Below, piece by piece: positions 18,975 through 40,023 of a stretch of DNA of 64,000 bases. This DNA comes from an uncultured Myxococcales bacterium. Lineage in GTDB: Bacteria > Myxococcota_A > UBA9042. How positions within the stretch are numbered: position 1 is the first letter of the stretch; every line of letters starts with the position of its first letter. Under the pieces are notes generated by a model. That model was not told the DNA's origin. It searched no databases and was given only the letters and a program-made list of their open reading frames with translations. The DNA is taken from assembly GCA_903840165.1 (NCBI GenBank), contig CAIMEY010000075.1:44365-108364 (forward strand), written 5' to 3'. The position numbers were made by a program, and so were the translations under genes.

Positions 18975-19057
18975 GGCCTGGTCAAACTAGCCTTGGCGGA
19001 CGGAACTGGCAAGCGCGTCTGCAGGCGGGTATGCTGGCACCGCCTTTGGAGGTCCTC

Positions 19058-20875
19058 ATGGTCAGCCGTGCTATTTGCGTTATCCTGCTGCATTTACTGG
19101 TTATTCTTGGCATTGCGTCACCGGCCATGGCCGCGGACTGGCAGGCCCAGGCGACCGAGTTCTTGCAGGCGTACAATGCGAAATATGTAGGCTTAGTTAC
19201 GGTCGCCAACGCTGCGGAGTGGGCGGCAAGCACCAACGTTTCCAAGCAGACGGAAGACAAACGCACGCAGGCCGACGAAGCGCTGGCGATCTTTCGCGGC
19301 GATGTCAAAATCATCCAACAAACTAAGGAGTTGCTTGGCCACGCTGCTGCGCTGACGCCTAGTCAGGTCAGGCAGTTGCAAAAGGTGCTGCTCGGTGCGG
19401 CACAAAATCCTGCGACAATTCCAAAGGTTGTCAAAGAGCGGATCGAGGCGGAAAGCCGGCAGGCTTCGGTTCAAGACGGCTTTGTCTATTGCGCGCAAGC
19501 CAAGGCCGCCGATGGCAGTTGCGCAAAGCCGCTGATCGCCAATGATTTGGATGAGGTACTGCGCAATAGCCGCGACCTTAGCCAGCGGTTGCAAACGTGG
19601 AACCTCAGCAAGGAAATCGGCAAGCCCCTCAAGCCGGGCCTAGAGAAGCTGCAAAAGCTGCGCAATCAGATCGCGCGCGAGATGGGCTACTCGTCGTTTT
19701 TTGCCTTGCAGGTTGCGGAGTACGACATGACCGTGCCCGAGATGCTGGGCCTGCTCGATGGTCTGCTTGACGACATGCAGCCCCTGTACGACGCCCTGCA
19801 CACGTGGACTGCCCGAGAACTGGCGCGGCGTTACAGCGCGCAGGTGCCCAAGGGCTCTATCCCCGCGCATTGGTTGACCAATCGTTGGGCGCAGAACTGG
19901 GTGGCCTTGGCGCCCGGTGTGGACCTCGACCACTACTTTGCCGATCGCAAGCCCGAATGGATCGTTCAACAAGCTGAAAACTTTTACGTTTCGATGGGCA
20001 TGCCTAAGCTGCCTGCCACGTTTTGGCAGAAGTCGGACTTGTATCCGGTGCCGGCTGGCGAAAAGCGCAATAAAAACAGCCATGCTTCGGCGTGGCACAT
20101 GGACCTGGACCAGGACGTGCGGTCGCTGATGAGCGTGCAGCCCGACAGCGAATGGTTCTCCACCGCGCACCACGAATTAGGGCATATTTACTATTACTTG
20201 AGCTACAGTCGGCCCCAAGTCCCCGTGCTGTTGCGCGAAGGGGCCAACCGCGCTTTTCATGAAGGCATTGGCGAGTTGATCAGCATCGCCGCTACGCAGC
20301 TGCCCTACCTACAAGCCCAAGGGATTATTCCCAAAGATGCCAAGATCGACCAGAACGCTTGGCTGCTCAATGAGGCGCTCGAGCACACCGTGTCGTTTAT
20401 TCCCTGGTCGGCTGGCGTCATGACGCGCTTTGAATACGAGCTCTATGAGCACGACTTGCCGGCCGACAAGTGGCAGCAAACCTGGTGGAATCTTGTGGAA
20501 AAATACCAGAAGGTTTCCCCGCCCTCGGCCGATCGTCGCGGCGATCCGCTGGCTTGCGACGCGTGCACAAAGACGCATATCAATGATGACCCGGCGCAAT
20601 ACTACGACTACGCCATCGCCACCGTGCTGAAGTACCAACTGCACGCCTACATCGCCAAGAAGATCCTCAAGCAAGACCCGCACTTCTGCAATTACTACGG
20701 CAACAAGCAGGTGGGCGATTTCTTGCGGCACATTCTCGAACAAGGGGCGACCCGCGACTGGCGCGTGGTGCTGCAGGAAGCGACGGGCGAGCCCCTGTCG
20801 ACGCGGGCGATGGTCGAATACTTCGAGCCGCTGGGCCGTTGGTTAGAGGCGGAAAATGCCAAGGCTGCTAAGTAG
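19058..20875 (+). CDS. Peptidase M2 (angiotensin-converting-enzyme-like peptidyl-dipeptidase), secreted
   Basis: Zinc site HHELGHIYYY...HEGIGELIS matches ACE HHEMGHIQY...HEAIGD; ATG at 19058 follows GGAGG and starts signal peptide MVSRAICVILLHLLVILGIASPAMAADW. Confidence 0.8.
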   Translation: MVSRAICVILLHLLVILGIASPAMAADWQAQATEFLQAYNAKYVGLVTVANAAEWAASTNVSKQTEDKRTQADEALAIFRGDVKIIQQTKELLGHAAALTPSQVRQLQKVLLGAAQNPATIPKVVKERIEAESRQASVQDGFVYCAQAKAADGSCAKPLIANDLDEVLRNSRDLSQRLQTWNLSKEIGKPLKPGLEKLQKLRNQIAREMGYSSFFALQVAEYDMTVPEMLGLLDGLLDDMQPLYDALHTWTARELARRYSAQVPKGSIPAHWLTNRWAQNWVALAPGVDLDHYFADRKPEWIVQQAENFYVSMGMPKLPATFWQKSDLYPVPAGEKRNKNSHASAWHMDLDQDVRSLMSVQPDSEWFSTAHHELGHIYYYLSYSRPQVPVLLREGANRAFHEGIGELISIAATQLPYLQAQGIIPKDAKIDQNAWLLNEALEHTVSFIPWSAGVMTRFEYELYEHDLPADKWQQTWWNLVEKYQKVSPPSADRRGDPLACDACTKTHINDDPAQYYDYAIATVLKYQLHAYIAKKILKQDPHFCNYYGNKQVGDFLRHILEQGATRDWRVVLQEATGEPLSTRAMVEYFEPLGRWLEAENAKAAK

Positions 20876-22779: not shown

Positions 22780-24111
22780 GTGCGTCGCCTGATCGCCATG
22801 AGCTTGACCATTGTTGTCTTGGTGATCGCCAGCACCGTGGTGCTCTTTGTGCAACTTCGCCAATCGGCAGAGGAAACTCTGTTGGCCCGGGGCCTTGATC
22901 GCGCTTCGGCCCTGGCCATGGCCGCGCGAACGGTTGCGCCGGACGACGGCGTACTGCAGCGCCTTTCCTCGCAACTACTTGACACAACGGTGCTTCACTC
23001 CGTGGTGTTCGACCCAAGAGGCCAACCGCTGACGGCCGCCGATCCAGCCCCGGCCACAGTGGAGGAGGCGGCTACCATCGTTCAAGCCGTTCTGCAGTCT
23101 AACCATTGGCAAGTTCAGAAGAAAGAGGCATGGCTGGCCCTAGACGAATACCGCCTGTGGTACCCGCTGAACGCCGGGCCGGCTGCCGTTCAACTGCAGC
23201 CCGGGCCGCCGACGGGTGGGCCGCGGGTGCTGCTCTTGTCTCTCGACACGACGGCGGCGCAGGCCATGGTGCGCAAGGCGCAACTCCATGCATTTATGAT
23301 TACAGCACTTTTGGCCCTACTGCTGGCCCTGACCGTGCGCCAAGTGCGCCTGGACGCGCGGCAGCGGCAGCAGCGACAACAGCAAGAACAGCAAAGGCGC
23401 TTCTTGGAATTAGGACGTCTATCCGCGGTGTTGGCGCATGAGGTGCGCAATCCCCTGGGGGCCATCAAGGGATTTGCCCAGATCACCGCCGTGCGCTTTG
23501 ACGCCGACGACGACGCGCGGGCCGATATGGACGTAATTGTGAGTGAATGCGAGCGGTTAGAAAGGCTGGTGGAGTCCCTGCTGCGCTACGCCCGGCCTCT
23601 GAGCCTGCAAAGGCAGGCGACAGATGTTTCTGAATTGCTTGATCAAGTCGTCAAGTTGGCGCTGCCGGCCGCGGCAAGTCCGCAGCACACCGTTCACGTG
23701 GCCGTGGCGAGCGCGCCGGTGCTGGCCGACCTCGATCGGGCGCAGATGACCCAAGCCCTGATCAATATCGTGGGCAACGCGCTGCAAGCTATTGGTCCTC
23801 AAGGGGAAATCTGGGTATCGGCCTGGACCGAGGGTTCGACATTGTGGCTCGGGGTCGAAGATGATGGGCCCGGCATTGCGCCGGCGATTCGGCATGAAAT
23901 CTTCGAGCCTTACGTGACGAGCAAAGCCACTGGCACAGGCATCGGTCTAGCCATCACACTGCGCATCGTCCAGGCGCATGCCGGTGAAATCATTGTATTT
24001 GAACGCAATCCGCACGGCACACGCATGGTGGTGAGCCTGCCGAACGCTGTGCTCAGGGGTCAGTTGCCCCAAGCCTTAGCGGCGACCGTCAAGCCAGAGG
24101 TATCGACCTAG
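22780..24111 (+). CDS. Sensor histidine kinase (two TM segments, periplasmic sensor, HisKA + HATPase_c)
   Basis: H-box LSAVLAHEVRNPLGAIKGF, N/G boxes (NIVGNALQAI, DDGPGI, GTGIGLAI); Gln-rich coiled coil after TM2; GTG 22780 or ATG 22798 start. Confidence 0.8.
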   Translation: MRRLIAMSLTIVVLVIASTVVLFVQLRQSAEETLLARGLDRASALAMAARTVAPDDGVLQRLSSQLLDTTVLHSVVFDPRGQPLTAADPAPATVEEAATIVQAVLQSNHWQVQKKEAWLALDEYRLWYPLNAGPAAVQLQPGPPTGGPRVLLLSLDTTAAQAMVRKAQLHAFMITALLALLLALTVRQVRLDARQRQQRQQQEQQRRFLELGRLSAVLAHEVRNPLGAIKGFAQITAVRFDADDDARADMDVIVSECERLERLVESLLRYARPLSLQRQATDVSELLDQVVKLALPAAASPQHTVHVAVASAPVLADLDRAQMTQALINIVGNALQAIGPQGEIWVSAWTEGSTLWLGVEDDGPGIAPAIRHEIFEPYVTSKATGTGIGLAITLRIVQAHAGEIIVFERNPHGTRMVVSLPNAVLRGQLPQALAATVKPEVST

Positions 24112-24198
24112 CGGCAATTGTTTGGGATTGTGCCGCAGCCCTTGGACCGCCGGCCCAAAAGACCTACCCGGGAAATTGTCCAATCGTATTGAGGTTCT

Positions 24199-25551
24199 AT
24201 GACCGAGACTTCGTCCACTGTTGACCAGGCAAAGGCGCGCTTGCTCGTCGTTGATGACCAGTCCGCTTTTCGCCGCCTGCTGCTCCGCATCCTTGCCGAG
24301 GCGGGCTACGAACTGTTTGAGGCGGCCGATGCGCAGACAGCCCTTGAAATGGCCAAGAAAAACGCCGTGGATGTGGTGATTACCGACATCCGCATGCCTG
24401 GGCAGGACGGCCACGGATTGCTTGCGAATCTGCGGCGCGACCTCCCGCAAACGCAAGTGATTTTGCTGACGGCCTACGGTTCGGTGCCCGATGCTGTGGA
24501 GGCGATGAAGCACGGTGCTTGTGACTATCTGACCAAACCTCTTGCCAATCCTGAGGAATTGAGATCGGCTGTTCAACGGGCCCTGCGTCATCGGCGGTCT
24601 TTGCAGGAGCCCCAAGCCCGGGGGCCTGATCCCGAATTGCAACTGGTTTGGGCCGATCCGCAGATGAAGCAAGTCTATGATTCTCTTGTGCGTTTGGCGC
24701 CGACCTCTGCCACGGTCCTACTGCAGGGGGAGACGGGCACGGGCAAGGAAGTGGTGGCGCGGACCTTGCATCAGCTATCCCCTCGTAAAAAGGAGGCTTT
24801 TGTTGCGGTCAATTGCGCCGCGCTGTCCGAAGGGCTGCTCGATTCCGAACTTTTTGGCCATGAGAAGGGGGCCTTCACTGGGGCGGACAGGCAGAGGCAG
24901 GGGCGCTTTGAACTGGCCAATGGCGGTACCCTGCTACTGGATGAAGTGGGCGAAATGAGTCCACTTCTGCAGGTCAAGCTGCTGCGGGTGCTGCAAGAGC
25001 GCAACGTCGTGCGCGTGGGCGGTCATGCCACCCTTGCTGTGGATGTGCGGGTCATTGCTGCGACGCACCGCGACCTGCAAGCAGCAGTGTTAGCAGGGAA
25101 TTTTCGCGAGGATCTCTACTATCGTCTGGCCGTCGTGCCCGTGCGGGTGCCGCCGTTACGGGAGCGTCGTGGCGATATCCTTGTGCTGGCGGAACATTTT
25201 CTGCAGCAACTCAGTCGCCGTTACGGTCGGCAACACATGGTGTTGGATGCTGAGGCGAAAAACGCTTTGCTTGCCTACGTTTGGCCGGGCAATGTGCGCG
25301 AACTCTACAATGTCATGGAGCGAGCCTTGGTCCTGACGACCGGTTCGGTGCTCGGGACTCAAAGCCTCAGCATGGACGGACAACTAGCTGTTTTACAGGC
25401 GGAAACGCCAGTCAACCTGCGCGACATGGAACGGCAGGCCATCCTGCGGGCCCTGGAGGAGTGCGGGGGAAATCGGCGAATGGCGGCGCAGCGGCTCGGC
25501 ATTGGCCTGCGGACTTTGCAGTACAAGCTCAACGACTATGAGTTGCGGTAG
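24199..25551 (+). CDS. Sigma54-dependent response regulator (NtrC family: REC + AAA+ sigma54-activator + Fis-type HTH)
   Basis: REC LLVVDDQSAFRRLL...DVVITDIRMPGQDG; Walker A GETGTGKEV; GAFTGA motif; C-terminal HTH RRMAAQRLGIGLRTLQYKL. Confidence 0.9.
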   Translation: MTETSSTVDQAKARLLVVDDQSAFRRLLLRILAEAGYELFEAADAQTALEMAKKNAVDVVITDIRMPGQDGHGLLANLRRDLPQTQVILLTAYGSVPDAVEAMKHGACDYLTKPLANPEELRSAVQRALRHRRSLQEPQARGPDPELQLVWADPQMKQVYDSLVRLAPTSATVLLQGETGTGKEVVARTLHQLSPRKKEAFVAVNCAALSEGLLDSELFGHEKGAFTGADRQRQGRFELANGGTLLLDEVGEMSPLLQVKLLRVLQERNVVRVGGHATLAVDVRVIAATHRDLQAAVLAGNFREDLYYRLAVVPVRVPPLRERRGDILVLAEHFLQQLSRRYGRQHMVLDAEAKNALLAYVWPGNVRELYNVMERALVLTTGSVLGTQSLSMDGQLAVLQAETPVNLRDMERQAILRALEECGGNRRMAAQRLGIGLRTLQYKLNDYELR

Positions 25552-25807: not shown

Positions 25808-25823
25808 TGGCACGCCCCTTGCA
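25808..25823 (+). promoter_or_regulatory. Sigma54 (-24/-12) promoter TGGCAC-N5-TTGCA upstream of the MYXO-CTERM gene
   Basis: Exact match TGGCACgccccTTGCA about 75 nt upstream of the 25898 start, immediately downstream of the sigma54 activator gene; an unusual AT-rich tract with a T6 run lies upstream at 25700-25750. Confidence 0.65.
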
Positions 25824-25897: not shown

Positions 25898-28051
25898 ATG
25901 CGCTTACGAAAATTATTGCCAATCGTTAGTCTTTTCACAGTCCTTGCCGGAGCCCGCAGCGCCATGGCCTGTGGCGGTTGCTTTTCGCCACCGACCCCGC
26001 AATTGGACCAGACCGTGGTGCAGAACGCCGAGCGTGTGCTGTTCACCCGCGATGAACAGACAAAGGTTTCGCGGGTTTGGGTCGAGGTGCGCTACAGCGG
26101 CCTGGCCAAGGACTTCGGCTGGGTGCTGCCCCTGCCCAAGGTGCCCAAGGTCGGCGTCGGCTCCAAGGTACTCTTTGACGCACTGGACACGCGGATGGCG
26201 ATGCGCTACGCCATGGCCTATGCCCCTGCAGAGAATTGCCGAGGTACCTGGCAGGGTTGCAAGGACTATCCTATGGTGGGCGGCGGCGACTTTGCCGATG
26301 CCTCAGCCTCCGGTGCGGATGTGGCGGGCAGCGACACGTCCAAGAATGGCGGTGGGCCGGGCGTCGAGATTCTCGCTAGTGGCACCACGGGCCCCTATGA
26401 CTATACGGTGGTGCAAGGCGGCAATGCCGATGTGCTGTATACTTGGCTAAACACGCGCGGTTATGCCACGCCGGACAAGGCCAAACCCATCTTGCAGTCG
26501 CACATCACCAAGGGCGACGTCTTTGTTGCGGTCAAGCTGAGCAATGGCCAAGGCGTCGAAGCCATCCGCCCGATTACCTTGGAAATGGCCGACACCGAGG
26601 CCTGCGTGCCCCTGCGCTTGACGTCCATTGCCGCCGCCGATGATTTGGCGGTTGTGGTCACCATCGCCGGGCCGGGGCGAGCGATCGTTAAGAACCACCT
26701 GGATGTAGAGCCCAATCCCTTGCGCATGGCTCTTCTAAACGACCAAGGTACGCCCAACTACAATGGGACGTACATCCCGTGCAATCAGGATGGCCAGTAC
26801 TACTATAGCTGCCAGATTCCTACGAATCTCGCGCAGGTGCAGTCGGCCGCCATCGACGAGGCGGGAGGCCACGCTTTTGTCACCGAGGCGGCGTTCAAGG
26901 GCAGTGACCTGGGTAATCTCCTGAATATGTCTAAGAATTCGGCGGACTGGCTCGCCAAGGTCAAGAACCTCGATGACGTCGCCAACCAACTGGCCGTCGC
27001 CTCGGATTTTCCCGTGAATTCAGAGGTTGGCGATGCCCTCAGTCTGCCCTTGGCCCTGACGACGACCTTCCCGGGCGTCGATCCGGCCCAAGCGCTGGCT
27101 GACTTGCGCGCGTGTGGTCAGTACTGGCAGATGCCCCAGAGTCCAGAGTGCCAGCTTCCCGGCGGATTGGTGTTGACGCATGAGCAGTTGCAGGCCGTGG
27201 CAATCGATGGCGTCGGAGCGCAGACGGCGATGAAGGTGGGCATTATCGACCCCCTGTTCCTGGTTGGCGACCAGTTGGCTGCCGCGCCGATGCTGACCCG
27301 CCTGAGCATGCGCATTTCGCCCAGTGAAATGGACCGTGACCCCGTGTTTTCCTTCAACAGTTCTTTGCCGAAGGTGGACCCGACGCGGGTCATCCTTTCG
27401 AACCAAGTCTGCCTGGATGGCTGGGATACGGGCCCGCAAGCAACGCGCCTTTCCATCGACGGATTAGGTAGTTGGCTGTTCACGGGCAGCAACACCTTGG
27501 ACCCGCGATTTGTCAACGCGCCGACCGCGCTGTGGGTGCGTTTGCAGGACGAGACAGGGCCGGCCATCGACATCGCCACGGCACAGATCAGCCTGATTGA
27601 TACGGCGATCAAGGGCGCGCTGCCGGGCAAGGCCAGCCTGCCGGTAGACCTGAATGTGCAAAAAGGCAAGCCGTGGCAGGCACCTGCCTCAGACCTGATC
27701 GCGACCAAGCAAGGGCCCTGGCATTCGCCCGGTTCCTGGTGTGAGCCGCGGGCGGGCTGGGTGGACGGCAAGCCGGCCCCGAGTGAAACCGACCTGGATG
27801 CCGGCAGCACCGACGTGGCGGGTGATACGCAAGACACTAATTCTACAGGCACTGTCCCCGGCATTGATGCGGCGGGCGGCTGGACCGATGTGCATTCGCC
27901 CCAAGCCACAGCGGCAACTGGTGTTGCGGCGAGCGATAACAGTGGCTGCACCGCTGGGCGTACGCACCGCAGTCAATCCCTTGGATTGTTGATGATTTCT
28001 GGGCTGTTGGCGGCTGTAGTGCTGCGCCGTCGGCAACGCAAGGAGGCTTGA
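25898..28051 (+). CDS. Large secreted protein with N-terminal CGGCF motif (DUF2330-like?) and MYXO-CTERM-like C-terminal sorting tail
   Basis: Signal peptide MRLRKLLPIVSLFTVLAGARSAMACGGCF; C-terminus GCTAGRTHRSQSLGLLMISGLLAAVVLRRRQRKEA (Cys, hydrophobic span, basic cluster), as in the Myxococcales MYXO-CTERM sorting signal. Confidence 0.7.
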   Translation: MRLRKLLPIVSLFTVLAGARSAMACGGCFSPPTPQLDQTVVQNAERVLFTRDEQTKVSRVWVEVRYSGLAKDFGWVLPLPKVPKVGVGSKVLFDALDTRMAMRYAMAYAPAENCRGTWQGCKDYPMVGGGDFADASASGADVAGSDTSKNGGGPGVEILASGTTGPYDYTVVQGGNADVLYTWLNTRGYATPDKAKPILQSHITKGDVFVAVKLSNGQGVEAIRPITLEMADTEACVPLRLTSIAAADDLAVVVTIAGPGRAIVKNHLDVEPNPLRMALLNDQGTPNYNGTYIPCNQDGQYYYSCQIPTNLAQVQSAAIDEAGGHAFVTEAAFKGSDLGNLLNMSKNSADWLAKVKNLDDVANQLAVASDFPVNSEVGDALSLPLALTTTFPGVDPAQALADLRACGQYWQMPQSPECQLPGGLVLTHEQLQAVAIDGVGAQTAMKVGIIDPLFLVGDQLAAAPMLTRLSMRISPSEMDRDPVFSFNSSLPKVDPTRVILSNQVCLDGWDTGPQATRLSIDGLGSWLFTGSNTLDPRFVNAPTALWVRLQDETGPAIDIATAQISLIDTAIKGALPGKASLPVDLNVQKGKPWQAPASDLIATKQGPWHSPGSWCEPRAGWVDGKPAPSETDLDAGSTDVAGDTQDTNSTGTVPGIDAAGGWTDVHSPQATAATGVAASDNSGCTAGRTHRSQSLGLLMISGLLAAVVLRRRQRKEA

Positions 28052-28824
28052 TGGATCTGCGTGCTCGACTGGGGCTATTGGTGTGTAGTTTTAGCGCCTT
28101 AGCGTCGTGTAGCGGCGCTTCGACCCAAGCCGTGGCCCCTGCCCCAGTCCAGCCGCAACCGTCCGCACAGTGTCCGATGCACGCGGCCCATCATCCCTCC
28201 GCCGATGGTTCTGCGCCTGCCAATCCGCATAAAGCCCATGACATTCATCACCGTTTTGACGACCCAGCGCAGTGGGCACCGGTCTTTGACTCGGCCGACC
28301 GCGACGCTTGGCAAAAGGGCGATGCCGTCGTAGCAGCGCTGGGCCTGCCAGCTCAGGCTCGTGTGGCCGATGTTGGCGCAGCTACAGGCTATTTCTCGGT
28401 GCGCTTTGCCCGCGCTTTGCCCCAAGGACAAGTCTGGGGCACGGACATCGAACCGAGGATGGTCGATTACTTGCAAAAAAGGGCCGCGACCGAAGGTTTG
28501 CCCAATCTACACGCAGTGTTGACCAAGGCGACCGAGCCCGAACTGCCAGGGCCCATGGACGTGGTCTTCCTGTGCGACGTCTATCACCATTTGCAGGACC
28601 GCGTCGCCTGGTTCCACCATCTTCGCAAGTACTTAGCGCCGGGTGGTCGCCTCGTGATCGTCGACTTCACCTTGGGCAATATTCCGGTCGGACCGCCTGT
28701 GGCGCAGCGCATTGGCCCCGAGGCGATGGCCGCTGAACTAGCCCAGGCCGGTCTGGTCTTGCAGCGGCGGGACGATTCCCTCTTGCCATACCAGCACTTG
28801 CTTGTGTTTGTGGCGGCGCCGTAG
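28048..28824 (+). CDS. Class I SAM-dependent methyltransferase lipoprotein
   Basis: Lipobox LASCSG; motif I VADVGAATGYFSVRFA; post-I acidic residue; 4-nt overlap (ATGA) with the upstream gene. Confidence 0.75.
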   Translation: MMDLRARLGLLVCSFSALASCSGASTQAVAPAPVQPQPSAQCPMHAAHHPSADGSAPANPHKAHDIHHRFDDPAQWAPVFDSADRDAWQKGDAVVAALGLPAQARVADVGAATGYFSVRFARALPQGQVWGTDIEPRMVDYLQKRAATEGLPNLHAVLTKATEPELPGPMDVVFLCDVYHHLQDRVAWFHHLRKYLAPGGRLVIVDFTLGNIPVGPPVAQRIGPEAMAAELAQAGLVLQRRDDSLLPYQHLLVFVAAP

Positions 28825-28975: not shown

Positions 28976-28991
28976 TGGCACGGACCTTGCT
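28976..28991 (+). promoter_or_regulatory. Sigma54 (-24/-12) promoter TGGCAC-N5-TTGCT upstream of the PqqD-like / ATP-grasp operon
   Basis: Exact TGGCACggaccTTGC about 50 nt upstream of the GTG start at 29040; second such promoter within 3.2 kb downstream of the NtrC-like gene. Confidence 0.65.
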
Positions 28992-29039: not shown

Positions 29040-29288
29040 GTGTACGAACACTTGGCACTCAGCGATTCAGGCTTTCTCTTCGACACGCGGACGGGGAACA
29101 CCTATACCCTTAGCAAAACAGGCACTTTTCTGTTGCGCACCCTGATTGCTGGCGGGACGTGGCAGGAACTTCCGACCCAGCTTGCCGCCACCTATGAGGT
29201 GGACGACGAGACAGCTCGGCGCGATGTGGAACAATTCTCCTTTCGTTTGAAAGACTTGGGTCTAGTCGCGCCGGAGGTCGGCTCATGA
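29040..29288 (+). CDS. PqqD-family peptide-chaperone protein (RiPP recognition-element-like), 82 aa
   Basis: GTG start after AGGAAAG; YEHLALSDSGFLFDTRTGNTYTLSKTGTFLLRTLIAGGTWQELPTQLAATYEVDDETARRDVEQFSFRLKDLGLV follows the PqqD profile (flfd..g..y.LN.tg..iw.l..g.t..ei...l...y.v....a..Dv..f...L...gli). Confidence 0.6.
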   Translation: MYEHLALSDSGFLFDTRTGNTYTLSKTGTFLLRTLIAGGTWQELPTQLAATYEVDDETARRDVEQFSFRLKDLGLVAPEVGS

Positions 29289-30343
29289 AGCCCTGCACCA
29301 TCGCGGTCACCGGGCTCAATGCGACCGACAATCCGGGACCGGGCGTGCCGGTCATTCGCGCAATTCGCCAAGCAAATCCCAACTGTACGATTGTCGGCCT
29401 TGGCTATGATGCCCTGGACCCGGGTGCCTACATGGAGGGCATTGCCGACCACGTCTACCTCATGCCATTTCCGTCCCAAGGCGCTGAAGTTGTTGGGCAA
29501 CGCCTGGCAGCGATTCACGCGCAGACGCCTATCGATGTGCTGATTCCTACGCTTGATTCCGAACTAGCCCCCTACATCAAGCTTGAGCCGGTGCTCCGTG
29601 GCATGGGCATTGCGACCTACCTGCCCAGCGCTGAGGGCCTGCAACTGCGCGCCAAGGATAAGCTTTCGGCCCTGTCGGCCAAGGGCGTGCGCGTGCCCAA
29701 GAGCGTGACCTTGACCGATGCGACCGCCATCGCCCAACTCGACCAGCACATCGAGTTCCCGGTGATGGTCAAAGGGCAGTTCTACGAGGCGTTCATCGCC
29801 TACTCGCCTATGGAAGTACATAGTCATTTCGAACGGTTGCGTGCCAAGTGGGGGCTGCCCGTGGTGCTGCAGGCTTACGTGCCCGGCACTGAGTACGACA
29901 TCACGGCGGTGGGCGATGGCCAAGGGGGGCTGGTGGGCTCGGTGGCCATGAAGAAGATGCAGCTCACCGATAAAGGCAAAGCGTGGGGCGGGGTTACCAT
30001 AGCCGATCCCCAACTGGACGCCTTCGTTGCCTTGACGATGGCGGCCCTGCAGTGGCGGGGGCCGTGCGAGCTGGAAGTGATGCGCGCCAAGGATAGCGGT
30101 GAGTGCTATCTTATTGAAATTAATCCGCGTTTTCCGGCCTGGGTCTATCTCACAGTCGGCGCTGGGCGCAACTTGCCCTGGGCAACAGTGCAACTGGCCT
30201 TGGGGCAAGCGGTCGCACCGATGCCGCCGGCTCCGGCAGGAATCCTGTTTCTACGTCACAGTTTAGATCAAGTCTGCGCGATGGCGGACTTTCAGGCCCT
30301 GACCACGGTGGGGGAACTGCACCGCAAGGAGACCGAGCAATGA
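29285..30343 (+). CDS. ATP-grasp family ligase
   Basis: ATP-grasp fold blocks VMVKGQFYEAF, QAYVPGTEYDITAV, ECYLIEINPRFPAW (E-x-N-x-R catalytic motif); ATGA overlap with the PqqD-like gene. Confidence 0.8.
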   Translation: MKPCTIAVTGLNATDNPGPGVPVIRAIRQANPNCTIVGLGYDALDPGAYMEGIADHVYLMPFPSQGAEVVGQRLAAIHAQTPIDVLIPTLDSELAPYIKLEPVLRGMGIATYLPSAEGLQLRAKDKLSALSAKGVRVPKSVTLTDATAIAQLDQHIEFPVMVKGQFYEAFIAYSPMEVHSHFERLRAKWGLPVVLQAYVPGTEYDITAVGDGQGGLVGSVAMKKMQLTDKGKAWGGVTIADPQLDAFVALTMAALQWRGPCELEVMRAKDSGECYLIEINPRFPAWVYLTVGAGRNLPWATVQLALGQAVAPMPPAPAGILFLRHSLDQVCAMADFQALTTVGELHRKETEQ

Positions 30344-31689: not shown

Positions 31690-31835
31690 GGTTTCTAGCG
31701 ATCTGGGGCGATTGTGCCATGGTCCAGCGCTGGCTCCAGTGACGCAGGCCGGACCATGGCGCAGTCCATACCCGCAGAGTTTTGAGATTGATGAACGATT
31801 CCAGTTCGCTTGCTTAGGTAGATTTCGGGGCCTTG

Positions 31836-34073
31836 ATGCCGCAACGCTATCCCACAGTGCTTCCTGCCGCCGCCGAGTCGCAGCTCGACATGGGCTCTGC
31901 TCGCGTGGCGATCGCAGAAAATGTGCGCAATAATAGGGTATTAGCGGCCATGCGCTGGCTGGGCGACGAAGTGCTGGCTGTCTACGGCTTAGTGCTCTTT
32001 GGTGCGCCGCTGCACGCTTCGGTCTTGCTGTTGGCCGCAACTTGGGTGGCCGGCGTGCCCAGTGCGGCCTTGGGGTTGCTGAGTCTGCTGCTGGCTCAGG
32101 GGCTTGCAAGGGTGCTACTGCCCAATTCCTCAGTCTCAGAGCGCAATTGGCTGGCATGCAACGCCCTACTGACGGGCCTCTATCTGGGCGCGCTTTATGC
32201 GCCGAACCTGACCCTGCTGGCGCTCGCGGCCATGGTGACGCTGGCGGGGGTGCTCTTGGCCGCCGCGCTCAGGTCTCTGGTCGATCGATACCTTGGGATT
32301 CCCTTGTTATCGCTGCCTTTTGTTGTAGCCAGCTGGGGAGCGCTTTTGCTGGCGCGCCATTTCCCAGGCCTGCCCTTGGCCAAAGCCGCGCTGGCTGAGC
32401 CGTTGTCGCTGCCGCTGAGCGATGGCCCCCGCGAAATCCTGAGGCTCCTTGCCGCAATCTTCATGCAAAACAGCGCAGTTGCCGGCCTGTTGGTGGGTCT
32501 GGCGTGGCTGTTGTGGTCGCGTTGGAGCCTGATCCTGGCTCTGCTGGGAATCCTCAGTGGGCAGGCGATCTTGGCACTGCTTGGTGGGACGCATACCGGT
32601 ACGGAGTTGGCCCACGTCGGCTTCAACGCGGCGCTTGTGGCGGTGGCCTGTGGTGGTGTTTTTGTCGTTCTTTCAAAGTCTTCCCTGATCGCTGCCTGTC
32701 TTGCCGGTGCCTTGGCGACCCTGCTGGGCATCGCTTTGCAAGGAGCGCTGCTGCCCTTGAACCTGCCCGTGCTCGCGGCGCCTTTTGTCTTGTTGACGCA
32801 AGGACTTCTCTTGGCGCTGCACGGCCGGCTGGGCTCTGGTCCTTTGCAACTGGTGCTTGGGCCACCCCTGCGGCCAGAAGACAATCTTCATCAGGTGTTG
32901 CAGAGCGCGCGCCGCTATCCGCCGGTTGGCATGCCTCTGCTGTACTTGCCTGTGCTTGGGCGTTGGCGCGTGACCCAGGGCCCGCGGGGCGCTTTGACCC
33001 ATCAGGGACAGTGGGCCCATGCCTGGGATTTTGAAGTCGAAAACGACCAAGGCGAGCGATTTCGCGGTGAGGGCCAGGCCGTTCAGGACTTCTATGCTTG
33101 GGGAGCGCCGGTGGTGGCTCCGGGCGATGGACGGGTGGTGCGTGTGATAAATCATCTGGAAGATCAAGAGATTGGCCACGTCGACTTGGCCCACAACTGG
33201 GGCAATATGGTGGTCGTGGCCCACAGCGGCGGCGTATTCTCGGCCCTGAGCCACTTGCAGCAGGGCAGCATCGGCGTGCACGAGGGTCAAACCGTCGTTC
33301 GCGGCGAAGTCCTTGGACGCGTAGGCAATTCGGGCCGATCGCCAGTGCCCCATCTGCACGTCCAGGTGCAAGCGTCAGCCGAGGTGGGCGCGCCGACTCT
33401 GCCCGCCCAGTTCCTCCATTTTCTGCAAATCGCAGTCGATGAGCAGAGTTATCAAACCTGCGGCAGCCCTCAAACCGGTGCGCTTCTGCAGTCTCTAGCG
33501 ACCCAGTCGAGTACAGCCCGCGCTTTCGCCTTTGCGCCAGGCACGCAAATTCACTGGCTTATTCACGGTCAGCAGTTGGGACCACCGCGGCGAGAGACGT
33601 GGTCCAGTGAACTCGATGCCCTGGGCCGCCGGACTTTGAAGTCCAACGGCGCTGCTGCCTCGATTTACATCGACGATTCCTATGCCACTGTGCTGGATTA
33701 CACCGGCCCAGCCGACACCTTGCTGGCCATGTACGCGGTGGCGGCGGCGCGTGTGCCCTTCGCAGCGGCCGACGGCGTGACTTGGCACGACAGTCCGTCC
33801 ATTCTGGCCCATCTGTCCAAACCCGTTAGGATTCTACTTGAATTGCTGATGCCCTTTGGTGCCCAGACGGGGGTTCCCACGCACTCCCGGCTCATGCAGG
33901 GCAGCGATGGCACCTTGGTGCTCGAGACCAAGATCCGCCGCCCGCACCGGCTCATGCGCGCCAAACAACTGCCGGATCGCTTGCAGTTGCTGGTGCAGCC
34001 TGGCGTGGGCCCCACGGCGTTGCGCGCCTATCGCGGCGACCTCTTGTGCCTGGATGCTGAGGTAACACTTTGA
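31836..34073 (+). CDS. Polytopic urea-transporter-like membrane domain fused to M23 (LytM-type) metallopeptidase domain plus C-terminal unknown domain
   Basis: About 330 aa of TM helices containing UT-like half-repeat motifs (FMQNSAVAG; HVGFNAALVAVACGG); M23 motifs HQGQWAHAWDF...HVDLAHNWGNMVVVAH...VGNSGRSPVPHLHVQV; possible TTG start at 31833. Confidence 0.7.
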   Translation: MPQRYPTVLPAAAESQLDMGSARVAIAENVRNNRVLAAMRWLGDEVLAVYGLVLFGAPLHASVLLLAATWVAGVPSAALGLLSLLLAQGLARVLLPNSSVSERNWLACNALLTGLYLGALYAPNLTLLALAAMVTLAGVLLAAALRSLVDRYLGIPLLSLPFVVASWGALLLARHFPGLPLAKAALAEPLSLPLSDGPREILRLLAAIFMQNSAVAGLLVGLAWLLWSRWSLILALLGILSGQAILALLGGTHTGTELAHVGFNAALVAVACGGVFVVLSKSSLIAACLAGALATLLGIALQGALLPLNLPVLAAPFVLLTQGLLLALHGRLGSGPLQLVLGPPLRPEDNLHQVLQSARRYPPVGMPLLYLPVLGRWRVTQGPRGALTHQGQWAHAWDFEVENDQGERFRGEGQAVQDFYAWGAPVVAPGDGRVVRVINHLEDQEIGHVDLAHNWGNMVVVAHSGGVFSALSHLQQGSIGVHEGQTVVRGEVLGRVGNSGRSPVPHLHVQVQASAEVGAPTLPAQFLHFLQIAVDEQSYQTCGSPQTGALLQSLATQSSTARAFAFAPGTQIHWLIHGQQLGPPRRETWSSELDALGRRTLKSNGAAASIYIDDSYATVLDYTGPADTLLAMYAVAAARVPFAAADGVTWHDSPSILAHLSKPVRILLELLMPFGAQTGVPTHSRLMQGSDGTLVLETKIRRPHRLMRAKQLPDRLQLLVQPGVGPTALRAYRGDLLCLDAEVTL

Positions 34074-35200
34074 AGTATTTACAGTTTCAACGATGCCTTG
34101 TGCCAAGCCTCTTGGTCGCCTCAGCGATGGCAGCTGTGCCCGCCTGGGCCGACCCGCTGCCGGCGGTCACGCAACCGGAATTGCCGCCGCCGCAACTGGA
34201 ACAGGCTGACTCAACGTCCGCGCAGCCCGCCCCAGTCGCAGTGCCGGCGACGATCACGCCAAGCGACGCGGGCGAAAAAGTCTATGACGGCAGTGCTTTG
34301 CCTCCCTTCTCCCCGCCCACCCACGAGGCTCCGCTGCCGGCCTTTGCCCCCTTCGATGCGCCGGCCGCTGTCCCTGCGCCTGTCGCAGAAGTGCTTGAAC
34401 ATCCGCCGGTTTGCTCGGGCGGGACGGTCGCGCCCGTTGCCACGTGGCATCCCCACGCCAGTCTGTGGGCGACGCAGTTTCAGTATACCAATCCGTGGAA
34501 TCTTTCTAAGATTCAAGCAGTTTCCCTGGTTGCAGGGGCCGATGCGCCCGGGGGCGGTTGGTGGCTTGCCTCGGCGCAATCGCAGACCGGTCTGCGCTAC
34601 CAAACGAGTGATTTTCGCCAAGATCACAATGTGGTAGGCGGCTACCTGCGCTGGGGACTCTGGCAAGCCGAGGCCGTTCTTGGGCAGGCCTGGACAACAG
34701 CTAGCGATACGGACGGCGCGCGTCTGGGCCAGTTGGGCATAGGCTGGCAGTCGCCGCAATTTGCCGCGCATTTGTCTGCGAGTGCTGTCCGTTATAGCGC
34801 TAGAACTACAGCACAAATCGACCCGAAGCTGTCCTATTTCACCCGCTGGCTCGACCTGTCCCTGGCCGGCCAGGTGCAGACCATTGACGACAACGGTCAG
34901 ACCACCGATTGGCTGGGTTCCGCAGCAATTGCAGCAAATTGGCGTCCCTGGACTCAGGTGAGCGCGACCGCCTTGGGCTGGTACGGGCGGCGGCAATGGC
35001 AGGTCGATGCCCAGGGTGCGTCGCTTTGGAGCAATAATGACCTATTTATAGGCGGTTACCGTATCGAGCTGCGCTACCAGTCTCGCGCTTGGTGGGGGCT
35101 GAGCGCGGTATGGCTGGATGATTTTGGCCGTCAGCAGAATGCCCTGAGTCACAGTTTTCAAGTTCGAGGCGCCACACTGGGGGCCCGCTTTCAGTTCTAA
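34070..35200 (+). CDS. Outer-membrane beta-barrel protein with Pro-rich N-terminal linker
   Basis: Signal peptide MKYLQFQRCLVPSLLVASAMAAVPAWA; alternating hydrophobic strands; C-terminal aromatic residue (ARFQF) typical of BAM substrates; ATGA overlap with the upstream gene. Confidence 0.6.
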   Translation: MKYLQFQRCLVPSLLVASAMAAVPAWADPLPAVTQPELPPPQLEQADSTSAQPAPVAVPATITPSDAGEKVYDGSALPPFSPPTHEAPLPAFAPFDAPAAVPAPVAEVLEHPPVCSGGTVAPVATWHPHASLWATQFQYTNPWNLSKIQAVSLVAGADAPGGGWWLASAQSQTGLRYQTSDFRQDHNVVGGYLRWGLWQAEAVLGQAWTTASDTDGARLGQLGIGWQSPQFAAHLSASAVRYSARTTAQIDPKLSYFTRWLDLSLAGQVQTIDDNGQTTDWLGSAAIAANWRPWTQVSATALGWYGRRQWQVDAQGASLWSNNDLFIGGYRIELRYQSRAWWGLSAVWLDDFGRQQNALSHSFQVRGATLGARFQF

Positions 35201-35271: not shown

Positions 35272-35925
35272 ATGCTGCCCTCGCAACGCTCATGGAATCG
35301 AAAAATCCTCGTATTTTCAGCATTCTCCTGCCTCATGTCGGCTCCGGGCTCTGCCCAAGGGCCTACCCCTGCGGACCGGGTCGCAGCCTTGTTCGAGTCG
35401 TCATTTGCCTATGAAGCCAAGGGCAATAGCAGCAAGGCCCTTGCCGACACGCAGGAAATTCTGCAACTGCAGCCAAGTCACTACGTGGCTAATTTACGAG
35501 CAGGATGGCTGGCTTATGCAACTCAACGCTACGAAGAATCGCTCAATCACTACAACCGTGCGGCGGAGTTGGCACCGCGCGCCGTTGAACCCCAGCTCGG
35601 CGTGCTCTTGCCGTTGATGGCCCTAAAGCGTTGGCCTCAGGCTGAGACGATTGCCAAAGGAATTCTCGCTGTTGTTCCGCGCAATTACTTGGCCAGCAGT
35701 CGCCTGGCATTCACCGAGTTTTCGCTGGCCCACTACCGGCAAGCCGAAGGGCTCTATGCCCAAGTACTCAGCGATTATCCAGGCGATTTAGAGATGATGC
35801 TGGGTCTGGGCTGGACCCAGGTGCGCCTGGGCAAGAAGGATGATGCCCGGGCTGGATTTACGCAAGTTCTTGGTATTAGTCGACAAAATGCCAGTGCAAA
35901 GGCCGGCTTGGAGGCTTGCAAATGA
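35272..35925 (+). CDS. Secreted TPR-repeat protein
   Basis: Signal-like N-terminus; TPR-type Ala/Leu/Tyr periodicity (ALADTQEILQLQPSHYVANLRAGWLAYATQRYEESLNHYNRAAELAP). Confidence 0.6.
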   Translation: MLPSQRSWNRKILVFSAFSCLMSAPGSAQGPTPADRVAALFESSFAYEAKGNSSKALADTQEILQLQPSHYVANLRAGWLAYATQRYEESLNHYNRAAELAPRAVEPQLGVLLPLMALKRWPQAETIAKGILAVVPRNYLASSRLAFTEFSLAHYRQAEGLYAQVLSDYPGDLEMMLGLGWTQVRLGKKDDARAGFTQVLGISRQNASAKAGLEACK

Positions 35926-36575
35926 CATCCAGCATCTTGGCCCGGCGACTACTGTTGTTCACCGGCCTGTGCCTTGAGATTTGGCTTGCCACCGCCTGCA
36001 GCACGGCCGGCAGTGCTACCGCAGCCAACGGTGCAGCCTGTGTTGAAAAGGGTGACTGCGCGTCGAATTTATGTTTGATGTCAAGTATGTATGGCGTCGC
36101 TACCGGCTGGCAAGATGGCGCTTGTACGCAGTCTTGCCTAGGCAGCACCTGTCCGGGAACGAGCGTATGCATCGCCATGGATTCCAACAGCTATTGCCTT
36201 GGTGCTTGCAAAGCGGCCGCTGATTGCCGCATTGGCTACGCGTGCGATCCCTTGCTCGGCGCGTGCGTGCCCAACTGCACCCAGGGCTTTTCCTGTGGCA
36301 GCAAATATATCTGTCAGACCAATGGCTTGTGCCGGACCGCGAGCAGTGGTGGCACCGGCGTACCGGGCAGTTGCAGCGTCGACAACGACTGTCGCGGCAC
36401 CGCCGCCTGTCCTGGGACCCCAAGCCAGGGCTGCGTTTGTGCAATATTATCGACGGGTACCATGGCTTGCCGCGCCGGCTGCACCGCCTCTGCCGATTGC
36501 CCATTGACGTTCGGCGGCGCGCACCTCACCTGCGCAACCACCGGTTACTGCTTGGATCCTGCGGCGGGGGATTGA
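35916..36575 (+). CDS. Cys-rich secreted lipoprotein
   Basis: Signal RRLLLFTGLCLEIWLATAC; about 30 Cys in CxxxxC/GxC modules; overlaps the TPR gene stop by 10 nt. Confidence 0.55.
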   Translation: MQMTSSILARRLLLFTGLCLEIWLATACSTAGSATAANGAACVEKGDCASNLCLMSSMYGVATGWQDGACTQSCLGSTCPGTSVCIAMDSNSYCLGACKAAADCRIGYACDPLLGACVPNCTQGFSCGSKYICQTNGLCRTASSGGTGVPGSCSVDNDCRGTAACPGTPSQGCVCAILSTGTMACRAGCTASADCPLTFGGAHLTCATTGYCLDPAAGD

Positions 36576-36759
36576 CTGGGGTACTAGGGCTTGACTTGAG
36601 GCCCTCAACCTTCACAATACCCCAGCGCACAGGGGTGCACGGTCACTGAAATTATTGCACAATAGTTAGGCTTGTGCTCAATGGGTGGGGTCTATTGGCC
36701 CGCCGCGCCGTTCGCTGCCGGGCACCTGCGCATTTCCGTCAGCGCAAATACGGGGTGTT

Positions 36760-37563
36760 ATGTCGCTTTTTCCTTCCGTTCACCTTCTGCTGGCCTTGGT
36801 CTTGTTTTCGGCGTGCACAGCAACGACCAAGACGGCCCCCGCCTCAACGACCGATGTTGCTGACGCTTCTGCGGCTGATGCATCGGATGTTGCACAGGTT
36901 TCTGGTCCCGATGCGGTTCGGGCGCAACCCGCGGGGCCAGGCGATGCACAGGCCTGGACCAATGACGATTCTTGGCTGTATGGTGAGACTTTTTCCAGTG
37001 ATGACGCCATGTTCAATGCCGACGGCCTGGGCGATGCCGATGGCCCCTATGACGCCGTTTGCCAAGCCGCCTGCAACAATGTCGCCGCCGCCCATTGCCC
37101 CGCCGAGCCACCGGTTGCCGAATGCTGGTACAAATGTTCCAGCGGTTTTGTGCAAAACAGTCCTACTTGCGGGCCCTTGTATCAGGCCTACATCGCATGC
37201 CTAGCGGGCGTTGGCAAAGTCACCTGCGCTTGGGACGGTCTAGTGGACCCCACGGTGGTTTGCCCCGACCAGGCCAAGGCGCTCAATACCTGTTTCGGCA
37301 TCGTGCCTTTGCCCGGAGGCTGCGAAGCTGGCCCGTGTTTTGTCTCTCCCGGGGGCAATGGCACCGGCAGTTGCGGGTGCAGCGAAGCGTGCCCGCCCAA
37401 TTCGGCGGTCCAGGCGTACAAAGTCGCCTGCGACGAAAAGCAGTGCATCTGCACCCTCGACGGCGTGGACCAGGCGCCCGTGGCCGTCAGCGATGGCTGC
37501 GCCGCCCAGGGCAATACCGTCAAGGCGAAATCCTATCTGAATTCACTCTGTAAGGCGCCTTAA
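36760..37563 (+). CDS. Cys-rich secreted lipoprotein
   Basis: ATG 36760; lipobox LVLFSAC; Asp/Ala-rich linker, then a Cys-rich domain. Confidence 0.55.
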   Translation: MSLFPSVHLLLALVLFSACTATTKTAPASTTDVADASAADASDVAQVSGPDAVRAQPAGPGDAQAWTNDDSWLYGETFSSDDAMFNADGLGDADGPYDAVCQAACNNVAAAHCPAEPPVAECWYKCSSGFVQNSPTCGPLYQAYIACLAGVGKVTCAWDGLVDPTVVCPDQAKALNTCFGIVPLPGGCEAGPCFVSPGGNGTGSCGCSEACPPNSAVQAYKVACDEKQCICTLDGVDQAPVAVSDGCAAQGNTVKAKSYLNSLCKAP

Positions 37564-39949: not shown

Positions 39950-40023
39950 GCGGCGCGCCCCCTTGAAACTAGAAGCAAACGCAGTAGCTCGGACCCGCAA
40001 GGAACTTCGGGTTAGAGGTCCTA
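39950..40023 (-). repeat. Copy 2 of the ~65-80 nt element abutting a stop codon (degenerate hairpin arm)
   Basis: 86% identity to 7689-7757; its terminal CTA is again the TAG stop (minus strand) of the upstream gene (40021..42888); also sits 50 nt after the convergent helicase stop. Confidence 0.6.

Follow-up and report, generated by a model that had tools for sequence, protein, structure and literature searches.

In a 64,000-nucleotide stretch of DNA from an uncultured Myxococcales bacterium (assembly GCA_903840165.1, contig CAIMEY010000075.1, positions 44,365 to 108,364 of the forward strand; hereafter the window), we analyzed a gene whose product joins a membrane domain of the urea transporter (UT) family to an M23/LytM metallopeptidase domain and a third, LolA-like domain. 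Current views hold UT channels to be pores dedicated to urea, and M23 peptidases to be cell-wall enzymes that act outside the cytoplasm. In the present case, one polypeptide combines an M23 domain predicted to be on the cytoplasmic side of the membrane with a UT domain in which the urea-permeation chain is replaced, and it is encoded in a gene cassette that occurs across several phyla. We tentatively propose that this protein may form the inner-membrane part of a conserved six-gene envelope-spanning module, in which it would cleave a small amide product in the cytoplasm and pass it via the pore to an exit in the envelope. The gene and its domains are listed below (aa, amino acids).

31836..34073, + strand: three-domain inner-membrane protein of UT-M23-LolA-like architecture, the main finding (Pfam, structure model and family searches)
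31893..32915, + strand: UT-fold membrane domain, aa 21-361, including a cytoplasmic C1-like helix (348-361) and a PEDNL motif
32925..33437, + strand: M23/LytM metallopeptidase domain, aa 365-535, predicted to be cytoplasmic
33444..34070, + strand: C-terminal LolA-like beta-sheet domain, aa 538-746, exclusive to the UT-M23 architecture

The open reading frame (ORF) extends over 31833..34073 of the + strand and encodes 746 aa from a TTG codon; all residue numbers are counted from this TTG at 31833. An ATG follows at 31836, and the product read from it is 100% identical to the database protein P0001 (745 aa), so that the gene start given by the first-pass annotation of this DNA, 31836, agrees with the database record. 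The same annotation had reported a UT-family pore joined to an M23 peptidase in one ORF, which was confirmed by Pfam. The UT family (PF03253) matched aa 48-328 at 123.2 bits (cut-off 25) over positions 5-290 of the 292 in the profile, and Peptidase_M23 matched aa 423-514 at 59.6 bits (cut-off 28.7). The annotation had named two outcomes that would speak against such a fusion, namely failure of the UT profile and substitution of the M23 His/Asp residues, and neither was observed. The membrane domain has the ten-helix, two-fold inverted-repeat UT fold with the half-helices Pa and Pb, and the peptidase domain has the LytM fold. The predicted structure of the full protein reached a predicted template-modeling score (pTM) of 0.88, which indicates a fixed mutual arrangement of the three domains.

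The M23 peptidase and the LolA-like domain very probably lie in the cytoplasm, beneath the pore. In solved UT structures, the N- and C-termini are intracellular, and the C-terminal C1 helix and the long intracellular loop are cytoplasmic (PMC11589576). A C1-like element is kept in the fusion (the PEDNL motif and helix 348-361, alignable to the C-terminus of dvUT), the M23 domain begins four residues after this helix, and no hydrophobic segment of the protein could be observed beyond residue ~330. Family-averaged Lys/Arg content was high in the N-terminal tail and the predicted inside loops and low in the predicted outside loops, which fits an N-in/C-in arrangement. Additional information came from natural fusions to the downstream tetratricopeptide repeat (TPR) protein of the cassette (P0024, P0037, P0040 and P0108), each of which has a transmembrane segment between the C-terminal domain and the TPRs; in P0040, positive charges are found on the side of the C-terminal domain. 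These fusions are both a Rosetta-stone link between the components and an independent marker of topology. Together with the signal peptide of the stand-alone TPR protein, the linking segment suggests that the C-terminal domain and the TPR module are on opposite faces of the membrane and thus that the M23 and C-terminal domains should be cytoplasmic. The topology analysis that had been recommended earlier therefore points to a peptidase inside the cell, where peptidoglycan would no longer be its likely substrate, and the earlier suggestion of a peptidoglycan endopeptidase is not borne out by the UT termini, the lack of a transmembrane segment past residue ~330, the positive-inside bias or the TPR fusions. 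A fragment, P0139, also belongs to the UT-M23-LolA/TPR fusions.

The peptidase domain appears to be catalytically competent. Peptidoglycan outside the cytoplasm is the substrate of nearly all M23/LytM enzymes characterised so far, and the best M23 matches of the window domain were cell-wall enzymes or regulators of these. Among 79 distinct family sequences, H390, D399, H474, H507 and H509 were each present in all 79, and H396 and H464 in 78. The HxH motif is H507-L-H509 and the separate catalytic His is H474, whereas the first motif, H396-A-W-D399, has HxxD spacing; a further invariant His, H390, lies six residues upstream of H396 (Hx8D), and there is no canonical HxxxD. Thus, the complete LytM catalytic domain that had been described as HxxxD ... 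HxH proved to be intact in its HxH, H474 and D399, and noncanonical in its first motif. Because all catalytic residues are present, the domain looks active, unlike the degenerate EnvC, NlpD and DipM. It differs from LytM-type enzymes in its HxxD first motif, in the extra invariant His, in an insertion of about 21 residues between D399 and the PVxAPxDG strand, and in its position between a channel and a LolA-like domain. In addition, LytM, lysostaphin, ShyA/MepM and Csd3, as well as the degenerate members named above, are periplasmic or secreted, whereas the window domain is predicted to be cytoplasmic.

In the Pfam scan, the last ~230 residues of the protein had no match. The first-pass annotation had set out a further domain of ~240 aa with no recognisable similarity here; its lack of a Pfam match holds, its length is about 210 aa, and a similarity could be found by structure comparison. 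Modeled alone, this C-terminal domain was again predicted with confidence (predicted local distance difference test, pLDDT, 90.3) and was LolA-like by two structure-comparison methods. In an independent comparison, Foldseek placed LolA at the top (E=1.2e-4), ahead of ependymin-related proteins, RseB, LprG, nitrobindin and CRABP. The structural matches share only 4-13% identity at TM-scores of 0.3-0.45, which supports a fold class, that of an open beta-sheet binding hydrophobic ligands, rather than demonstrable homology. The LolA/LolB/RseB/LprG/EPDR1 folds are periplasmic or secreted, whereas the window domain is predicted to be cytoplasmic.

The UT domain looks like a working pore with altered selectivity. 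In a cryo-EM study published in 2024, a motif for the recognition of urea was defined together with a chain of polar residues, Q(Pb)-T(5b)-T(5a)-Q(Pa), on which permeation rests (PMC11589576). We mapped the pore positions by profile alignment to hUT-A2 and dvUT and counted residues over the 79 family sequences:

Q(Pb): A208 in the window; Ala in 78/79
T(5b): A315 in the window; Ser in 42, Ala in 37
T(5a): S160 in the window; Ser in 75/79
Q(Pa): L53 in the window; Gln in 64/79
aromatic residue on 3a: C109 in the window; Phe in 65, Tyr in 7

The urea-recognition polar chain is therefore absent from the window protein, which differs at all these chain positions from the Q-T-T-Q of the urea channels (dvUT 3K3F, Yut and SLC14 UT-A/UT-B). 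The other aromatic pore residues (F56, F264 and F318) are Phe in 78-79 of the 79 sequences each, and the two GFN asparagines (N110 and N265) are kept at the same frequency. Conservation was significantly higher at the 16 channel-lining positions than elsewhere in the UT domain (Mann-Whitney p=7.6e-4). The Yut equivalog model (TIGR03441) gave 85.8 bits, far below its cut-off of 274.6, and neither the window nor the conserved neighbourhood contained urease or urea-metabolism genes. In our reading, selection has kept the pore, in a fixed state in which the residues on the periplasmic side are smaller and less polar. Conserved lining residues together with an altered polar chain suggest a working conduit of altered selectivity, rather than a standard urea channel or a mere anchor. 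The small-amide pore proposed in the first-pass annotation is thus uncertain: it agrees with the fold and with most pore-lining residues, and disagrees with the Q-T-T-Q chain, here L-S-A-A, and with the Yut score. Two half-repeat signatures had been quoted in its support; both belong to the second half (the Pb helix and helix 3b), and the first-half equivalents are YGLVLFG (51-57) and LACNALLTGL (107-116). The protein is further set apart from urea channels by some 385 additional cytoplasmic residues and by the lack of a link to urease genes.

Further investigation of the family revealed that the fusion is widespread. With a word-indexed search, 44 proteins combining UT and M23 at a length of about 700-750 aa were obtained, and a pattern scan of species-representative genomes (185,579 genomes) identified 535 relatives, the best of which is 55% identical to the window protein. 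The best 80 of these 535 belong to Myxococcota, Bradymonadia, Desulfobacterota, many Bacteroidota, Rhodohalobacter and Marinimicrobia, and the cultured Bacteroidota among them include Algoriphagus, Shivajiella, Rhodonellum, Mariniradius (including saccharolyticus) and Fontibacter. A profile of the C-terminal domain alone recovered 796 cluster representatives, 442 of them at E<=1e-10. All full-length matches were 690-765 aa long with the domain at the C-terminus; candidate unfused versions were rejected, as the short matches inspected were contig-end fragments or chimeric calls. The third domain can therefore be taken as a signature of the UT-M23 fusion. In the database protein P0046 (357 aa), the N-terminus of the cassette ATP-grasp protein runs straight into the C-terminal part of the M23 domain, followed by the LolA-like domain; P0046 probably represents an artefact of assembly or deletion, and could also be a real deletion variant.

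Both Pfam families and their co-occurrence are already known. UT followed by a C-terminal M23 domain has been listed as a bacterial domain architecture, with UniProt A0A399T3G1 as an example (Cagliani et al., 2026, Biol Direct 21:32; PMC12998343). This survey presents the same architecture as that of the window protein, as a domain combination and a picture of a model, and does not go into its topology, pore motifs, third domain, gene neighbourhood or function. In the literature, we found no publication that describes the cassette, a cytoplasmic intact M23 domain, the lost urea-permeation chain, the LolA-like domain or a function. Public databases label members of the family 'urea transporter' or 'MepM/NlpD', and the former name is probably misleading.

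The gene order around three distant homologues (PqqD, ATP-grasp, a pyridoxal phosphate (PLP)-dependent decarboxylase of the Orn/DAP/Arg type, UT-M23 and TPR proteins) is recovered on a much larger scale. We surveyed 83 loci by tblastn followed by unbiased clustering of all ORFs of at least 50 aa; the locus search used an alignment of 12 sequences, an alignment of 41 being too divergent. The conserved partners and their distances from the UT-M23 gene were:

PqqD: 60-76 of 83 loci, at -2.7 kb
ATP-grasp: 75-76 of 83 loci, at -2.4 kb
PLP decarboxylase: 80-81 of 83 loci, at -1.35 kb
TPR proteins: 73-76 of 83 loci, at +2.2 and +3.5 kb

The cassette keeps these fixed offsets across at least four phyla, including Myxococcota, Desulfobacterota and Bacteroidota, and the clustering revealed no further conserved partner of UT-M23 in the 83 loci. 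The impression that the gene sits inside a biosynthetic operon is thus strengthened by the same gene set being conserved over most of the loci surveyed. In the window, neighbouring cassette genes share 4 bp at three of their junctions and 10 bp at a fourth. Its members besides the UT-M23 gene are:

29040..29288, + strand: PqqD-like small protein of 82 aa, of the RiPP-recognition-element type (RiPP, a ribosomally synthesized peptide that is modified post-translationally); Pfam PqqD, 48.5 bits against a cut-off of 23.4
29285..30343, + strand: ATP-grasp ligase of the CarB/biotin-carboxylase-like clade; Pfam ATPgrasp_Ter, 31.1 bits
30340..31689, + strand: fold-type III PLP decarboxylase, FslC/LysA-like; Pfam Orn_Arg_deC_N and Orn_DAP_Arg_deC
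34070..35200, + strand: secreted protein (slot X), probable outer-membrane beta-barrel; signal peptide, C-terminus ...GARFQF
35272..35925, + strand: periplasmic TPR protein of 217 aa; Pfam TPR families and a signal peptide
35916..36575, + strand: accessory Cys-rich lipoprotein of 219 aa with the lipobox ...LATAC

The PqqD-like protein keeps the core of the recognition element and carries an acidic C-terminal tail (D+E 32%, against 17% in the core), the last residue of which is not conserved (D/E in 24/67 sequences); its scores in the NCBIfam lasso and HPr-rel PqqD chaperone models were below cut-off, and its stop codon overlaps the ATP-grasp start. A PqqD-type recognition element with adjacent modifying enzymes, as in RiPP clusters, is thus present. 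On the other hand, no conserved precursor was found among ORFs of 15-120 aa within 900 bp upstream of PqqD in 62 loci, where only shadow ORFs of near-identical genomes appeared; it should be noted that very short or highly variable ORFs may escape such searches. In comparisons with the Protein Data Bank (PDB), the ATP-grasp profile matched CarB (4e-19), the CPS-like orphan 2pn1 (2.7e-11), and then biotin carboxylases (urea carboxylase among them), PurD, PurK and Ddl; RimK/LysX/GshB and L-amino-acid ligases were not among the matches. This CarB-like character makes carboxyphosphate or carbamate chemistry as plausible as amide ligation. The decarboxylase has the PLP lysine and was found in 81 loci at 49-82% identity. 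Its nearest PDB entry is the N-citrylornithine decarboxylase FslC (7kh2, 1.4e-58), followed by LysA enzymes and, lower, BtrK. Its pocket motif, GPLCMNID, is like GPSCMQHD of FslC and not like CESxD of LysA, which suggests that its substrate may be an amino acid with an already acylated distal amine.

Downstream, the start of slot X overlaps the UT-M23 stop, and its product clusters with the TPR family of 76 loci. No match to Pfam or in a PDB sequence search was found for the window protein (orf376). Among 59 homologues, the last residue was hydrophobic in 54, an alternating beta-signal was present in 49 and an N-terminal hydrophobic stretch in 56; homologues elsewhere have N-terminal TPRs in most loci. 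The window protein is beta-amphipathic over its last 245 aa (periodicity in 24 windows versus 2). On the basis of these terminal signatures and the periodicity, slot X probably encodes an outer-membrane barrel. Homologues of the 217-aa TPR protein occur in 73 of the 83 loci at about +3.5 kb, and the 219-aa Cys-rich lipoprotein (orf219) in 21 loci, of Myxococcota/Desulfobacterota type only. A second Cys-rich exported protein, orf292 (36685-37563), resembles orf219 in composition and is not conserved.

The surroundings of the cassette contain elements that may control its expression:

22780..25551, + strand: histidine kinase and NtrC-type sigma-54 activator (Pfam HisKA/HATPase_c; Response_reg/Sigma54_activat/HTH_8)
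28976..28991, + strand: sigma-54-type promoter TGGCACggaccTTGCT, 48 bp upstream of the PqqD start, an exact TGGCAC-N5-TTGCW
31710..31766, + strand: stable intergenic hairpin with 19-nt arms, 84% complementary, folding z-score -2.46

The motif TGGCAC-N5-TTGCW occurs twice in the window, against 0.31 matches expected, and the same strict motif was found 53-98 bp upstream of PqqD in 9 other loci of Myxococcota/Desulfobacterota type. As a histidine kinase/NtrC-type activator pair stands beside the cassette in about 15 loci, it is probable that the adjoining two-component system regulates the cassette in this lineage. The second exact sigma-54 promoter, TGGCACgccccTTGCA at 25808-25823, lies upstream of a DUF2330 gene (25898-28051) and an S-adenosylmethionine (SAM) methyltransferase gene (28048-28824), a pair that separates the sigma-54 activator from the cassette. 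The other 83 loci lack this pair, except for a single methyltransferase match that is unrelated, and the pair thus looks like a second target of this regulator that is specific to the lineage. The hairpin lies within the 144 bp that separate the decarboxylase gene from the UT-M23 gene and is specific to the window; since the two genes abut or overlap in most other loci, it may set differential expression or mRNA stability. No credible riboswitch or other RNA was detected in the cassette with Rfam at E<=1, and counts of intrinsic terminators and sigma-70 promoters in the cassette were at or below chance. An anti-phage defence system was also considered and rejected, as PADLOC gave no match for any of seven cassette proteins.

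In the mechanism that we tentatively favor, the ATP-grasp ligase, aided by the PqqD-like protein, would form an amide-linked amino-acid conjugate, possibly built on a peptide or on the acidic tail of the PqqD-like protein itself, and the decarboxylase would strip the free alpha-carboxylate of this conjugate. The M23 domain would then hydrolyse an amide bond and free a small amide or amine product at the cytoplasmic mouth of the pore, while the LolA-like domain might grip a hydrophobic part of the substrate or dock on the membrane. The product would exit via the modified UT pore into the periplasm, from where the TPR proteins and the outer-membrane barrel would take it onward; in this organism, expression of the operon would start at the sigma-54 promoter, with the adjacent two-component system as its probable activator. 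What we infer here comprises the class of substrate, a link between cleavage and permeation, and the direction of transport, and an exit route is supported by the downstream partners, which are exported and carry a beta-barrel signature. Several observations weigh against this mechanism. No precursor peptide was found upstream of PqqD (62 loci) or inside the cassette (83 loci). The ATP-grasp protein is nearest to CarB/biotin carboxylases and not to peptide or amino-acid ligases, so carboxylation or carbamoylation is possible. The zinc-ligand His could be either H390 or H396. Pore-lining residues also form the core of the fold, and their conservation could be partly structural. The UT pore is a narrow slot, which implies that only very small or linear molecules pass, whereas a dedicated outer-membrane barrel usually implies larger cargo than this slot admits. 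Finally, transport could be export or import. If the coupling is right, it would mean a new substrate class for UT proteins, a new role for M23 enzymes and a widespread metabolite pathway, sigma-54-controlled in Myxococcota. A more far-reaching version, to which we give a rather small chance, is that the cassette is an undescribed envelope-spanning biosynthesis/export machine, in which an amide-rich (possibly ureido or linear polyamide-like) product would be made by the ATP-grasp protein and the decarboxylase on a PqqD-bound peptide or carrier, released by the cytoplasmic M23 domain docked beneath the membrane and conducted to the TPR/beta-barrel exit by the UT domain, with its polar ladder changed to smaller residues (Gln to Ala, Thr to Ser/Ala). 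The UT fold would then have its first cargo other than urea, and M23 enzymes their first cytoplasmic member dedicated to a pathway.

Other explanations assign different roles to the pore and the peptidase. The protein might be an ordinary urea channel with flux regulated or gated by the cytoplasmic peptidase and LolA-like domains, by analogy with the ankyrin or EF-hand additions to other UTs. The strong UT fold and Pfam match, the many pore residues kept (F70, F/Y-3a, F-3b, F341 and both GFN Asn) and the Glu that dvUT itself has in place of Gln at Pb would agree with this, and added domains are regarded as regulatory modules in the survey cited above (PMC12998343). We nevertheless consider it distinctly unlikely: the permeation chain is A-A-S-L in the window, with Ala at Q(Pb) in 78/79 sequences, the Yut equivalog score is 85.8 against 274.6 with no urea-metabolism genes in the window or the conserved neighbourhood, a purely regulatory domain would not require five catalytic residues kept in 79/79 sequences, and the genes invariably found beside it encode a ligase, a decarboxylase and a peptide chaperone. 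Even less credible, and in our view hardly tenable, is a membrane-anchored peptidoglycan endopeptidase with the UT-like domain as a mere anchor and a periplasmic M23 domain. It would suit the mostly peptidoglycan-directed activity of characterised M23/LytM proteins and the cell-wall enzymes and regulators among the best M23 matches, but UT termini are both intracellular, no transmembrane segment separates UT from M23, the charge bias fits C-in, and an additional transmembrane segment is required wherever the protein is fused to its periplasmic TPR partner; moreover, the pore positions are under selection and the co-transcribed partners are cytoplasmic ATP- and PLP-dependent enzymes. A cytoplasmic editing of lipid-linked wall precursors, in which the LolA-like domain would hold the lipid tail, the M23 domain trim the stem peptide, and the decarboxylase and ATP-grasp protein modify the diamino acid, also appears very unlikely. 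Recognition of stem peptides is a property of M23 enzymes, as lipid-tail binding is of the LolA-like fold; the decarboxylase is a relative of DAP (diaminopimelate) decarboxylase, with a pocket suited to a diamino acid acylated at its distal amine, and ATP-grasp enzymes that decorate stem peptides exist, with Aslfm as a precedent. Yet this entirely inferential scheme leaves no role for the pore, the PqqD protein or the outer-membrane barrel, and no Mur, Mra or flippase genes are conserved nearby in the 83 loci.

Two further explanations were considered, neither of which we regard as probable. The module could work inward: a small amide or ureido compound or fragment would enter via the barrel and the UT pore and be processed by the peptidase, the decarboxylase and a carboxylating ATP-grasp enzyme, for assimilation or sensing. 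UTs are bidirectional channels, outer-membrane barrels with TPRs might be equally suited to uptake, sigma-54/NtrC-type control is typical of nitrogen assimilation, the scheme can be likened to urea or guanidine carboxylase pathways, and the ATP-grasp protein is nearest to CarB and biotin/urea carboxylase domains. However, the 83 loci share no conserved catabolic partner such as a biotin carrier, a carboxyltransferase or a hydrolase, TPR and barrel proteins are best known from export (PgaA/BcsC type, a weak NCBIfam match), and we know of no role of a PqqD-type peptide chaperone in catabolism, which counts against an inward pathway that includes one. A comparably small chance attaches to the M23 domain being the leader or release peptidase of a PqqD-recognised RiPP, with the UT domain only a tether beside an unlinked exporter. 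PqqD is a canonical RiPP recognition element that scores near the lasso-type chaperone models, and the cassette combines modifying enzymes with a peptidase. Against this stand the lack of a conserved precursor gene in or beside the cassette, where the sigma-54 promoter lies directly before PqqD, and the lack of a conserved ABC or other peptide exporter in the 83 loci. The pore residues are also conserved beyond the needs of an anchor, and the C-terminal domain and TPR partners would be left unexplained.

Several known pathways resemble the cassette in part. Rhizoferrin (FslA/FslC) and butirosin (BtrI/BtrJ/BtrK) biosynthesis likewise pair a ligase with a LysA-family PLP decarboxylase acting on a conjugated amino acid; BtrJ is an ATP-grasp enzyme and BtrK decarboxylates carrier-bound Glu. 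FslC is the nearest solved relative of the cassette decarboxylase and has the pocket motif in common with it. In contrast to these pathways, the cassette ligase is a CarB-like ATP-grasp protein rather than an NIS (nonribosomal peptide synthetase-independent siderophore) synthetase or a BtrJ-like enzyme, acyl carrier protein and siderophore genes are lacking, and a PqqD protein, a peptidase-channel fusion and envelope proteins are added. The LysW/LysX/LysK and pearlin-type pathways follow the same logic as the cassette, with a small protein or peptide, an ATP-dependent ligase, tailoring and release by a metallopeptidase, and the acidic tail of the PqqD-like protein is a likeness to such carrier or scaffold pathways. 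Unlike in LysW-type systems, the cassette ATP-grasp protein falls outside the RimK/LysX clade and the last PqqD residue is D/E in only 24/67 sequences; the idea of a LysW-like carrier is weakened by this clade assignment and by the non-conserved tail end. In addition, no scaffold-peptide gene was found, and the release enzyme is M23 instead of M20 or a cysteine/serine protease. Slot-X proteins resemble PgaA/BcsC-type exporters in their signal peptide, their N-terminal TPRs (present in most loci) and their beta-barrel signature at the C-terminus, whereas they are much smaller (about 375-500 aa) and have only weak TPR matches to these exporters, and the cassette has no polysaccharide synthase.

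Other genes of the window were also recorded. A BshC-like protein (bacillithiol synthesis), a GGDEF-hemerythrin diguanylate cyclase and a radical-SAM protein (536-2146, 4884-6152 and 49486-51210, respectively) have no link to the cassette. An angiotensin-converting-enzyme-like M2 peptidase (18845-20875; Pfam E=1.2e-101), unusual in bacteria, is encoded upstream of the two-component system and is not conserved beside the cassette. On the - strand (8907-13657), an ElbD-like NAD_binding_4/acyltransferase protein adjoins an alkyl-DHAP-synthase-like FAD_binding_4/FAD-oxidase_C protein, an arrangement that resembles a myxobacterial ether-lipid locus and agrees with the window being of Myxococcota origin. 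Also on the - strand, positions 40021-42888 encode a large Cys-rich protein with Dicty_CTDC/EGF-like repeats, and a similar protein is present beside the cassette regulators in another locus (L001, 704-3499), which suggests some extended synteny.

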